From: Vermamoeba vermiformis
Taxonomy: Eukaryota
Assembly (NCBI GenBank): GCA_045837725.1
Contig: JBEWZL010000095.1
Coordinates: 1-64,000 of the forward strand
DNA length: 64,000 bases
Direction: 5' to 3'
Part shown: positions 27,907 through 35,787 of the stretch, in pieces
Position numbering within the stretch: position 1 is the stretch's first letter
Layout of the letters: the number at the start of each line of letters is the position of its first letter
Notes under the pieces: model-generated
Databases searched by the model: none
Told to the model about the DNA's origin: nothing
Seen by the model: only the letters and a program-made list of their open reading frames with translations
Program-made: the position numbers and the translations under genes

Positions 27907-28080
27907 AATCGATATACTAATAATAAACTCGAAAATTTTACATTAACCTGGCCCGGCTCTTCTCACTTGGTCAAGATAACGAATAGCAGCTTGAGGTACG
28001 TAAGACTAACTATAGTTTATTGTGATTGAATTACAATTTAAGAACAAACTGCAGAGAATATTTAAAGCTTGTCAAAGCAT

Positions 28081-30402
28081 TTAGGTGAAAATTAGGAACA
28101 ACAGCGCGGTGACTAAGATTGATAGCACACCATGATATTCGAATAGAGCCGCAGCGGTGCTCACTCCCGAGGGAGATCTGCTTGGCGGCGTAGTAGCAGT
28201 GTAGGGAGGTGAAGTGACTGGTCCTGGTACCGACACAATTTCTGCATCAATTCGTTAGTACTTAATTGTGGATTAATAGTAAGCAGACTTACTCGCTGGA
28301 GTGACAGACCAAACCGGATTTGGATCGAAATTTTGTTTCATTTCGGGCCAATTGGTCGCATTAACCATTCTGAAATATGATTCAACAGCGCCAGGTACTC
28401 CCAATTGCACCGCATACGAGATGGCAGGCTGAAGATTGCCCCACATAGATCTGGGCCAAAATCCAATGTCATATTCGGCACTCAGCACTCCTTCTTGCGT
28501 GCTCATCCAAGTTGGTGGTGTCGCGAATGTAGCAGCGTAAACAGCGGACCAATCAGCGAGCCAGGGACCAGCGCCTGTTTGGAAGTCGGGAACGTCAACG
28601 TTTGAGACCGTAATCGTGTACGGAGCTCCATTGATGTACCAGAAGCCAGTGGACGGTCCTAATCTGCCGACAACGGACTTGGCCTTCCATTGGAAGAATT
28701 CCATGGCTTTTTGGCTGTCTGCATCCGACACTGGCAGATCTAGCGAGATCGCGTGGCCCCAAGCAGCCGTAACAAAGTCTTGTTGCCACACAGCCACAAT
28801 GCCCGTGGCCTGACCACCACTGCCGTTGTCATATGCTTCTCCAGGCTGAATAAGTCCAAAGTCGTTGTTTTGTTGCTGGATGTACTTGGCGTGGTGGAAG
28901 CGGATGTTGCTCTCCCAACTCGCTTTGAAATTGTTGCGATAGTCATCGGCATCAGGAGTGACTGAATAAGCTTGGGCGAGGGCTCTGATCATCCACGCTG
29001 AAGAACGGGTCTGCACAGCACCAACGACTGAATGCAAAATGCCCGAGCTCATATTCCGCACGACGTCGGTGCCACCATTGTCAGTGAGGCCCAAGTAGTT
29101 GGTGGTGGCTGCAAACTGCACTTGTTCCATGAACAACCAGCGGCCAGTGACTAAATAAGCCAAGTAGCCTACTGACGGTGAATGTGCAGGGTCCCATTTA
29201 GGGGCTCCAGTTCCGTTACAGCGCGGAGTGATGTCGTTCTTGCTCGAGGCACCGTTGTTGTAGTATCGACACGTGTCATCAATGACCAAATTAGGATAGT
29301 CGCTGAATCGAAGGGGTTTCAAGGTGTTTTCATCGCGCCAAATCAACGGATAACGACCAGCACTGTAGCCATTGAACACGACGCCCTTGTAGACTATACT
29401 GGCGTTAACAGAAGTCAAATACGCCACGTCGTGCTCGGGAAGCATGCCAATGGGCCGTTGATAGCCAGGAGACGGCATTGAATCGGAGTCGTAGTCGAAG
29501 TTGCCTTGCTGTAAGGGCGCAAAAGAGCCAACTAAACGACTCACCGCTGCTTGCCCCGCATCGGCATCGGCAAAATATGAAGGGACGAGAAGCGAGGCTT
29601 GCATATAGATCGTGTCGTGGTGGACGGTAACGGCGGGATCTGTTGCGCCGAACCAATAAGAAAGAGCTGTTCCCGACAACAGAGGAGTGCGTGTATGAGC
29701 AGGGAGATCGATGAGACTAGTAAAGAGAGTGTCGCCGCCCAATTGAAAGTTGAAATTAGCGGTTTTGTTGGTCGGATTGGGAACGCGGATGTAGCCGTTT
29801 TCGATCCAAGGAAGAACCTCGACCGCTCCTCCCTTGTAAAGACGCACGTCTAACCAGGCAACGAGATAAGGGTCGTTTCCAACAGGCTTACGGAAAATCC
29901 AGTTCGACATCTGCCAGCCAGAAGTCCATTCCAAGTGAGGAGAGTCCCAATCAGCATTTTGCCAGGAAACACTTCCATAGCTCTCGCAATCTATCGCTGC
30001 GGTAAGACCAGTGGCCTTCAAATCGCTCAGCGTCAGAGGAGAACTATTCGTGTCACTCGCAGATGGACCGAGCGTCACAACCAACGGGGTGTCTGCGGTA
30101 AGAGCCGCGTGGCCAGAAATTATGGCGTATTTCAATGAGCCATCGGACCAATAGTTTTTCGGCACGACTTGCATTTCGGCAAGATTCGAAGCAGCAACAT
30201 TTTGACCGGATGCAATGTGGCCCTTGACGAAAGAGAAGCCTAACGTGAATGGTGCGCTGCCAGTAACAGGACTGAGTAGCACGAAAGACATGGCGCCTGT
30301 AGGAGTTGGCACGGAGACACCGGAGTACGTCGTGTTGAGGCACAAAACGGATCTCGACAGCGAGCAAACTAACACTGCGACCAAAATAAGTCCGAGGTGC
30401 AT
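28081..30402 (-). CDS. Secreted bacterial-type ~700-aa protein with a spliced Pro/Ser/Thr linker and GPI-type tail; exons 30402-28293 and 28241-28081
   Basis: Signal peptide and a long intronless body. Intron 28292-28242 (GTAAGT...TACTAAC...GCAG) adds KIVSVPGPVTSPPYTATTPPSRSPSGVSTAAALFEYHGVLSILVTALLFLIFT* in frame. Confidence 0.85.
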
Positions 30403-30667
30403 GGTGTTGGATTATCTAAAATTAAAAATAATCAGCATTGCTTGTTCTGACAGTTAAAGGGATCTCATTGCAGTCCCGTATTTGTCCGTTGCTGAATTTA
30501 GTAAGAAAGATATTTGAATCTTTGGCGTGTGTGTTACTCCAAATCAAGACAATAAATATATATTAGACAGATTCATACTTACGAAGACAGGTAGATTTGT
30601 CAGTCGAAGGCCAGTGGACATTCAAAAGTGACTTTGTACACACAGCAGCCTAGGGCAAAAAGGATGT

Positions 30668-30750
30668 CGACAACAGCAGGGTTTGAACCTGCGCGGGGGA
30701 ACCCCATGTGATTTCAAGTCACACGCCTTAGACCACTCGGCCATGTTGTC
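30668..30750 (-). tRNA. tRNA-Ser (anticodon UGA)
   Basis: GACAACA/TGTTGTC acceptor stem, TGGCCGAGTGG A-box, TGTGA-CTTGAAA-TCACA anticodon arm, long variable arm, GGTTCAAACC T-arm, G discriminator. Confidence 0.95.
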
Positions 30751-31976
30751 ATTTTCTTGAACTCTTCTTCAGGAGTACTTTGGCTCACGGTCACTAATTC
30801 AGCAGGCCTTGCCCCGTCACGATGTTGCCCACAACAATAATTACGACCGCCGAGCGGTCAATAAAGCTAGCTATCGCACTACGAAGGATTTATCTACCAA
30901 ATCTTCACGTCCTGAAAGTCCCATCTTCAAATCGGGATTAGATGCGCAGAAAATCGTCAGGAATTCTGGAAAAATTCGTAATACCGTCTACTGCAGTCGT
31001 TAGCGTACAGCAGCGACACTTCAAATTTTCTCTTAATTTTGGCTGTACCTGGTGACCAGCTAGACAAGATCCTCATCGACTCGAGGATAGGTGACACGGA
31101 TAGAAGGTTTTTGCGAAAACCGCTTATTCTTATCTACCTATTTATACAGTAGACTTGCTAGCGGTTTCCTTCACCAAATGTTCTTGTACTGAATTTAGAA
31201 AGCTAAAATGCGGATTTTTGTTACCGGACTTTTTTTGTGCTCGTTGGATTGAAACGAAACGCCGAACAATTCGCCTAAATAACGAATTCTATTTGTTATA
31301 AAATAATTTAAGTTTAGAAAGCCATCAGATACACTGTAACGAAGATGCAGAACCACAACTCTACAAAGCCGACGCGTCTAAGAAGGACAAATAATTCTTC
31401 TATTTTGTTAATGTATATATAATATTTTAAAAATACTTGCACATATTGCATTCTATCCAATGAAAGTCAGAAACTTGGGCTGGAAACGGTTGATTGAAAC
31501 CTTAGGAGGACCAAAGCAAGCACTGCTTATACGTGCATTCGTAGGCCTTCTACGGTTCGCAGTTGCGGCTTGACATTTAGAAGTGGTGCGTATCCGTAAA
31601 AAGTTTATTAAATTGGAAAAAGCAGTATTTTGCTTTGCAATAAGCGAGGATCGATATTGTACATTCTTATACTCAGCAAGGTATGCGTTTTTGTATTTTT
31701 ATAGCACGGGACCGTGGATTTAATGCCCGTTGGGAAAAAATCACGATTGCACCTTGCAGGTACAACCTTGGCTGCTTGGTCTTCTGGTATAATACCAAAG
31801 CTCGACTTCTTCTGATTGAAATCAAGAAATTGTTACCTGTTCTTATGCGCTCTTGTCTTGTACTGAATTAGTTACCGCGAGCCAAAGTACTCCTGAAAGA
31901 GACTTCAAGAAAATGGCAACATGGCCGAGCGGAACCAAGGCGTGTGACTTGAAATCACATGGGGTTCCCCCGCGCA
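30690..31976. repeat. Inverted duplication of about 113 bp (30690-30802 vs 31863-31976)
   Basis: CTGAATTAGT...GAGCCAAAGTACTCCTGAA...TTCAAGAAAATG plus the tRNA 5' portion occurs on opposite strands. Confidence 0.9.
31915..31976 (+). pseudogene. 3'-truncated tRNA-Ser(UGA) pseudogene
   Basis: Anticodon and variable arms identical to 30668-30750, altered D-arm, no T-arm and no 3' acceptor strand. Confidence 0.9.

Positions 31977-32042: not shown

Positions 32043-35787
<3,745 letters not shown>

Follow-up and report, generated by a model that had tools for sequence, protein, structure and literature searches.

The described protein closest in fold to the one reported here is the exo-rhamnogalacturonan lyase PcRGLX of Penicillium chrysogenum (PL26; PDB 5XQ3/5XQG), in which a RIFT barrel, a β-sandwich and an α/α toroid follow each other along the chain (PF19501, PF21345 and PF21346), and whose catalytic residues we take to be Tyr458/Asp460, Arg634 and His782. 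Related toroids form the unsaturated uronyl hydrolases of GH88/GH105 (4Q88, 1NC5, 4XUV), which are single-domain proteins. The functional class comprises the virion depolymerases of phages and the lyases and hydrolases encoded in exopolysaccharide (EPS) clusters, and transfers of carbohydrate-active genes from bacteria to protists, with later gain of introns, are a known general kind of event. In bacteria that form flocs, PEP-CTERM and EPS genes are both required for flocculation, and flocs are believed to withstand protozoan predation, according to the available parts of two studies (PMC9850573; bioRxiv 10.64898/2025.12.21.693542).

The Vermamoeba vermiformis gene described here encodes a protein with the domain order of PcRGLX and its N-terminal WxDGSxK motif; unlike PcRGLX, from which it differs at all but 11-13% of aligned positions, it is about 200 aa shorter, stays below all Pfam cut-offs, carries a GPI-type tail, and has relatives in EPS-synthesis clusters and phage virion modules. 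The GH88/GH105 enzymes share its toroid (Z 9-10 over 280-295 residues) at 7-12% identity. As in the class of phage depolymerases and EPS-cluster enzymes, homologues are found in both positions, EPS synthesis loci and virion modules, whereas the amoeba model is an α/α toroid with β domains rather than a β-helix spike and the family has no PHROG or NCBIfam match. With known bacteria-to-protist transfers it has in common an intron-poor bacterial body, a new signal peptide, expansion into paralogues and host-like codon use; it differs from them in that a single intron at the domain end would supply the anchor, and in that the family is unnamed and common to two other kinds of bacterial predator. 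The transfer of carbohydrate enzymes from bacteria to protists is of an already known kind; the PL26-fold family, carried here by an amoeba and elsewhere by phages and some predatory bacteria, has no name.

Structure of the gene

The window, a 64,000-nt stretch at the start of contig JBEWZL010000095.1, carries the gene on its minus strand (28081-30402). The open frame begins with the ATG at 30402 and stops at a TAA (28275-28273) that sits inside a single predicted coding intron of 51 nt in phase 1 (28242-28292, minus strand), with a GTAAGT donor, a TACTAAC branch and a CAG acceptor; if the intron is retained, the product has 709 aa. When 28292-28242 is spliced out, translation gives 756 aa with one terminal stop, a body of 703 aa being joined via the intron to a Pro/Ser/Thr linker and a GPI-type tail. 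An earlier note on this DNA had proposed this arrangement from the letters alone, and translation reproduces both the frame end at 28273 and the in-frame linker and hydrophobic tail, as well as all the protein motifs that the note had quoted. By hydropathy, hydrophobic stretches of the 756-aa product are confined to aa 1-25 and 733-756.

Around the gene, a tRNA-Ser(TGA) lies 264 bp upstream (30666-30751, minus strand) and is mentioned for context only; no tRNA is found near the other three genomic copies described below. A possible 5' UTR intron (minus strand, 30582-30416; GTAAGT ... TTTTAG) ends 13 nt before the ATG and is not retained in the paralogues. Three neighbours are ordinary eukaryotic genes: a P-type cation ATPase with spliced introns (32383-34898, minus strand), a pseudouridine synthase (1626-2537) and, at 48711-50558 (minus strand), an ORF whose matches to ALTTAQ and integrin-EGF repeats are weak. 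Elsewhere in the genome, the main actin is closest to PDB 4EFH and 1NLV, presumably the Acanthamoeba and Dictyostelium actins, and belongs to a very large family (123 matches), six intronless copies of equal score being among the best; the actin affinity points to a host that is probably an amoebozoan.

Conservation of the intron

The intron motif by itself proves little, because a loose version of the pattern matches 28 times in the window at similar lengths (46-83 nt); the intron was therefore tested through conservation among copies. The host assembly (43.3 Mb, 309 contigs) contains two further full copies, 92% and 85% identical, each of the three full copies lying on its own contig, and one fragment. 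In both paralogues, on contigs C61 (G000:C61; intron of 49 nt) and C221 (51 nt), the intron is at the same codon, exon 2 is kept, and a stop codon lies within the intron in all three copies. As the lengths vary between 49 and 51 nt, exon 2 is in another frame in C61. Among the copies it evolves at a dN/dS of 0.13-0.21, that is, under purifying selection, close to the 0.11-0.13 of the body (at dS 0.28-1.0); such selection, in a frame that with the 49-nt intron of C61 can be reached only by splicing, supports splicing. Stand-alone bacterial homologues end 1-5 residues past aa 702-703 of the query, which is the intron position, and the observation of the earlier note that the intron falls exactly at the end of the bacterial-like part thus holds.

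Outside this assembly, near-identical proteins are known from another one (P0001, P0002), and a second species has a protein of 72% identity (P0003), whose gene is on a 557-kb contig. In P0003 the frame continues without a stop across an insert at the intron site, of corresponding length, into a tail of the same type; the residues of the insert, read from the protein only, fit the codons of a donor, a branch and an acceptor. Two metagenome scans returned no eukaryotic locus (best match 56%), and a search for short proteins with the spliced end returned one bacterial fragment only.

Three RNA runs that carry the same species label (X10-X12) show splicing of neighbouring introns and zero depth on 28019-31924 at 92% likeness; they represent a divergent strain, 90-99% alike to the assembly, and the blank is weak evidence because depth is also missing in part of a neighbouring gene. 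Contigs of a root metatranscriptome (X1), which may include DNA, match parts of the body at 96-99% identity, none of them crossing the intron. From the conservation and the selection on exon 2, we infer splicing at 28292-28242, and we have little doubt that this is a real, transferred and spliced gene of the amoeba.

The fragment, a fourth copy (G000:C200:42536-42664; L004, L153), consists of about the first 62 codons, after which the sequence passes straight into downstream flanking DNA. The DNA on either side is 89-95% identical to that around the C221 copy, so that this copy is a duplicate or a haplotype from which the gene has been deleted; the loss of most of this copy counts against the best explanation given below. 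The C61 copy (L151) lies 2.6 kb from a CEMIP β-helix gene (PF24606, 128 bits), and immediately upstream of this copy is a further ORF that has a GPI-type tail (ORFs at L151:3-2447 and L151:7470-8873); the neighbourhood is possibly a cluster of surface glycan-acting genes.

Fold and family

The AlphaFold model (pLDDT 94.8, pTM 0.95) consists of β domains followed by an α/α toroid, as the earlier note had anticipated from a β-rich N-terminus and a helical C-terminal part. Behind the predicted signal peptide, a RIFT-barrel-like β domain (about aa 37-114; 30061-30294, minus strand) is indicated by the model strands, a sub-cut-off PF19501 match and hhalign to a PL26 set; a central β-sandwich (about aa 125-262; 29617-30030, minus strand) by the secondary structure of the model and its whole-chain alignment to 5XQG; and the toroid, the putative catalytic domain (aa 263-703; 28294-29616, minus strand), by its likeness to GH88/GH105. 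Of three PDB fold searches, each is headed by PL26, the comparison that the earlier note had suggested: one with Foldseek (E 1.7e-6, TM 0.26, 11% identity) and two with VIA-align, which was run on the Foldseek list and against 48,161 representatives (Z 11.1-11.3 over 484-496 residues at an rmsd of 4.7, which is modest for a helical fold). The GH88/GH105 toroids follow at Z 9-10, and nearly all top toroid matches are enzymes. PcRGLX is the only row at Z ≥8.4 in either VIA-align list that aligns along the whole chain (model residues 14-681).

The sequence relation is far weaker than the fold relation. The PF19501 score (19.3 bits) is below the Pfam cut-off of 22.1, there is no Pfam match to PF21345 or PF21346, and neither phmmer nor a profile search matches PcRGLX, while a true PL26 homologue (L143) scores 811 bits. 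With hhalign, the N-terminal domain alone aligns to the PL26 set (probability 66-80%), including the WxDGSxK motif; for the toroid, hhalign and a segment HMM do no better than reversed decoys. Pfam at E 0.01 yields no GH88/GH105 match either, and the protein has two β domains more than these families. In the Atlas, the whole protein falls into unnamed clusters bearing PF19501 (0.96-0.97), and the toroid alone lies near PF21346 clusters (0.86-0.87, a lead only). A search of the host genome found no true PL26 gene. The family thus shares the PL26 fold and should not be filed as PL26 by sequence. It is nameless in Pfam, NCBIfam and PHROGs, and a literature search at the level of listings, covering few subscription journals, found no description of family or gene, in line with the earlier view of an undescribed family.

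Within the toroid, M309, R356, H407, R466, W470 and R473 are 93-100% conserved among 100 sequences filtered at 55% identity and are intact in all three amoeba copies; a C378/C395 pair is a further feature of this domain. In the model, helices begin at or shortly after H407 and R466/W470, and the R-x-x-x-W at the helix start resembles what we take to be a GH88/GH105 motif. The catalytic positions of PcRGLX were located in the PDB sequence: its Tyr/Asp lie in an ITYEDW segment, for which there is no visible counterpart in the amoeba protein. A conserved His/Arg/Trp set, with no strictly conserved carboxylate pair, would suggest a lyase acting on uronate, a step that draws on general knowledge of lyases, and the family probably works like a polysaccharide lyase.

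Bacterial origin

The family comprises at least 1,030 protein clusters at E 1e-10, with 199 confirmed stretches in GTDB, of which the best 79 loci were fetched, and 59 loci in IMG/VR. Its distribution is patchy: of 301 Burkholderiales genomes, 12 have a member (the centre genome of this sample was picked because it does), and of 390 genomes from the class to which the Bdellovibrio carrier belongs, 9 do. Three genomes of that class (G1206, G902, G973) have two or three members each, from different subfamilies, as would be expected if predators collect variants.

Among the best 120 of 597 matches, the nearest relatives after the amoeba proteins P0001-P0003 are bacterial and phage proteins of at most about 55% identity, the named ones being from Burkholderiales and Bdellovibrio; the body as a whole is 50-56% identical to bacterial proteins. 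The distribution in eukaryotes was viewed among these 120 and among the best 150 of 1351 matches. One sequence labelled as from the nematode Ostertagia ostertagi (P0048) resembles a GC-rich bacterial sequence of the Roseateles type; it probably stems from contamination of the nematode assembly and was not treated as eukaryotic. In a check of the C-termini of 267 homologous proteins, three have a hydrophobic end, of which only that of P0003 is of GPI type.

In all trees (a FastTree of 252 rows and IQ-TREE subsets of 40-42 rows picked around the query, with the root at the midpoint or on a chosen outgroup), the four amoeba-type rows are united, with full support, in a single clade that lies within bacterial and phage diversity, as befits the bacterial origin first proposed. 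Two proteins from Bdellovibrio MAGs are sister to this clade at 100/98 in the finished careful tree, at SH 93 in the quick tree and at 95/75 after recoding. The grouping is lost after stripping of the 25% most biased columns, which also removes genuine shared characters, and P0004 is then sister at 94/96; the amoeba and Bdellovibrio groups both have low GARP/FYMINK ratios. Independently of the trees, 8 of 351 rows have the C378/C395 pair, namely six amoeba-type ones and one Bdellovibrio protein that is present twice. Of 48 rare residues, the two Bdellovibrio rows share 8 and 7 with the amoeba rows (mean 1.8); phage locus L091 and P0143 also share 7 each. A Bdellovibrio-like donor is thus suggested as the leading candidate, by most trees and the cysteine pair, and fails one composition test. 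The original description of the protein as Burkholderiales-like stands for the family, which is rich in Burkholderiales, and does not stand for the nearest relatives, which in most trees are the Bdellovibrio proteins.

Genomic context of bacterial and phage homologues

Bacterial members are often found in PEP-CTERM/exosortase exopolysaccharide clusters. Recurrent neighbours are GT4 and GT2 glycosyltransferases, Wzx flippases, polysaccharide deacetylases and nucleotide-sugar dehydrogenases, as well as the XrtA-type amidotransferase and the exosortase-A-associated ligase TIGR03097; Wzx, glycosyltransferase and deacetylase contexts occur in at least six named genera and in distant subfamilies. 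At least two EPS-synthesis families lie within 8 kb in 24 of 79 GTDB loci, a lower bound as it derives from BLAST clusters, and in 20 of the 55 loci of at least 12 kb. The other 55 of the 79, including 12 of 13 Roseateles loci, do not have two such families, which counts against the EPS reading. Across evenly drawn Burkholderiales, TIGR03097 exceeds its cut-off in 10 of 12 carriers and 73 of 289 other genomes (Fisher p 7e-5; 9 of 11 carriers and p 2e-4 without the centre genome), the p-values being too small as the genomes are kin, and two background genomes (G587, G333) being unpublished; in seven carriers it lies within 8 kb of the family gene, as read by hand from coordinates. The link to bacterial polysaccharide and biofilm that had been suspected from the sequence is borne out by these contexts, the activity itself being a matter of inference.

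Roseateles-type homologues stand beside genes of peptidoglycan recycling: a DppA-type binding protein, an LD-carboxypeptidase and a D-Ala-D-Ala dipeptidase. In three loci (L206:38-2956, L203, L081) the homologue is opposite the DppA-type gene, and in L206 the S66 LD-carboxypeptidase and the M15 D-Ala-D-Ala dipeptidase are nearby. Many bacterial members are fused to a C-terminal propeller-like domain (weak Kelch matches). Bdellovibrio and several phages encode this domain in a gene of its own next to the family gene (L047:6643-7794, L019:7339-8421, L005:5098-6219, L091:5797-6915), and none of the amoeba copies has it attached; its occurrence as a neighbouring gene suggests that it may be a partner.

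The phage homologues have a context of their own, with no EPS-synthesis family near any viral locus. Virion genes (terminase, portal, head, neck, tail) are nearby in 41 of the 51 loci scanned out of 59, a raw count without a background rate, mostly based on one or few neighbours each and including some near-duplicates. In five loci (L005, L087, L092, L096, L100) the gene is embedded in the morphogenesis block and shares its strand. Certain phage members carry fused Ig-like domains or have fibronectin-III proteins as neighbours. Among 50,697 GenBank phages, one has a distant homologue, gp39 of EBPR siphovirus 1, encoded between the terminase and head genes and beside an annotated glycosyl hydrolase; the available parts of the paper on this phage mention EPS as an obstacle degraded by phages and are silent on gp39 (PMC3097231). 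This placement in virion modules is a point that could not be seen from the window by itself.

Adaptation to the host secretory route

A simple pattern finds a Tat-plus-lipobox N-terminus in 38 of 77 bacterial homologues and in none of 58 viral ones. The amoeba protein has an ER-type signal in its place (predicted signal peptide, aa 1-22; 30337-30402, minus strand), visible as a hydropathy peak, with a cleavage site placed by eye, and retained in the C61 and C221 copies. The GC3 of the amoeba copies (0.47-0.55) is within the host range (0.45-0.65), as against a bacterial median of 0.85. Three N-glycosylation sequons present in 4 of 4 amoeba-type rows are rare elsewhere: N333 (1 of 344 other rows), N450 (30 of 344) and N681 (18 of 344).

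Exon 2 encodes the Pro/Ser/Thr linker (aa 704-730; 28162-28241, minus strand) and the GPI-type signal (28081-28161, minus strand), in which a candidate omega site chosen by eye, S731-T-A, is followed by a spacer, a 15-aa hydrophobic tail and the stop; C61, C221 and P0003 have the same pattern. On inspection, these four sequences have the layout of a GPI signal: an N-terminal signal, small omega residues, a spacer, a hydrophobic end and no cytosolic tail. The host encodes the GPI transamidase subunit Gpi16/PIG-T (PF04113 above cut-off on two contigs). Layout and machinery agree with the GPI-type anchor of the earlier note as a predicted anchor, and we consider that the protein would be GPI-attached at the cell surface. 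A search for a host source of exon 2 found none, with one weak match (E 0.04).

Proposed role and alternatives

We propose, with a probability of roughly 0.57, that the protein is a horizontally acquired, surface-anchored depolymerase for uronate-containing exopolysaccharide of prey, while bacteria use the family to trim their own EPS and phages use it on the virion. An amoebozoan ancestor would have acquired an intronless bacterial gene of the unnamed PL26-fold family and exchanged the bacterial export signal for an ER signal peptide; a single intron, placed where the domain ends, would tie the body to linker and GPI signal. The protein would then follow the secretory route, be N-glycosylated and GPI-anchored, and be exposed on the outside of the cell and to the interior of the phagosome. 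There its toroid, lined with His, Arg and Trp, would cut a uronate-containing exopolysaccharide made by prey that form flocs or biofilms, the likeliest mechanism being β-elimination. Cutting would loosen prey cells for engulfment or digestion and open flocs. The bacterial lipoprotein form would trim or release the EPS of its own cell, and phages would carry the protein on the virion to cross the EPS layer. A surface-displayed enzyme for prey or biofilm polysaccharide had been proposed before, and the GPI-type tail, the fold and the EPS context support it; activity, substrate and mechanism, like display, are predictions from the model and the sequence.

It is unlikely that the protein is instead a non-catalytic GPI-anchored lectin that recognises or grips prey, with the phage versions as receptor-binding decorations. 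The failure to match the PL26 catalytic residues in the toroid and the Ig-like fusions and fibronectin-III neighbours of phage versions would fit a lectin, but the His, three Arg and the Trp are 98-100% conserved in bacteria and phages down to about 25% identity, as fits a catalytic site, and the top toroid matches are nearly all enzymes. It seems improbable that the protein attacks plant pectin or the mucilage of roots in the manner of PL26, whether to feed the amoeba or to open a way for it through the rhizosphere: the best fold match is indeed a rhamnogalacturonan lyase, and body pieces of 96-99% identity come from a root metatranscriptome, but the ITYEDW segment of PcRGLX has no visible counterpart, the bacterial homologues are in synthesis clusters and not in pectin-use loci, and a pectinase would be of little gain to phages. 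We also give a low probability to another envelope polymer of the prey (peptidoglycan, O-antigen or a glycoprotein glycan) as the substrate in place of loose EPS. Here the S66 and M15 peptidases that adjoin Roseateles-type homologues point to peptidoglycan, and TIGR03097, a putative O-glycosylation ligase, to a protein-linked glycan; but the peptidase context is limited to one genus-level group, in contrast to the breadth of the Wzx, glycosyltransferase and deacetylase contexts.

That the main product is the soluble 709-aa form with a retained intron, or that the tail is a plain membrane anchor and not a GPI signal, is very unlikely: the stop inside the intron of all three copies and the lack of a spliced read in the RNA runs would allow it, but exon 2 is under purifying selection in the splice-only frame of C61, the equivalent insert of P0003 has no stop, and a cytosolic tail is absent. 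Bacterial contamination or a chance intron motif, for which the intronless body and its identity to bacterial proteins might speak, can largely be dismissed, as the intron is conserved in three diverged copies on eukaryotic contigs (the argument against contamination first drawn from its presence) and near-identical proteins come from another assembly and a related one from a second species.

Beyond the surface depolymerase proposed here, a wider reading is possible and is held tentatively. Bacteria would process their own PEP-CTERM-linked floc EPS with this family, and three kinds of predator would have recruited it: tailed phages, which would carry it on the virion, Bdellovibrio, which would have it as a lipoprotein, and the amoeba, with a GPI-anchored surface enzyme, the amoeba copy coming from a Bdellovibrio-type predator. 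If true, the family would be a new one among lyases and would directly counter a grazing defence based on flocs.

The depolymerase reading makes the gene a testable candidate for how an amoeba breaks the floc grazing defence, and it offers a possible function for a family of over 1,000 protein clusters that lack annotation, among them genes in the virion modules of uncultured phages. The family may bear on floc stability in activated sludge, and the gene would be a tidy illustration of how one intron can send the product of a foreign gene to the cell surface.
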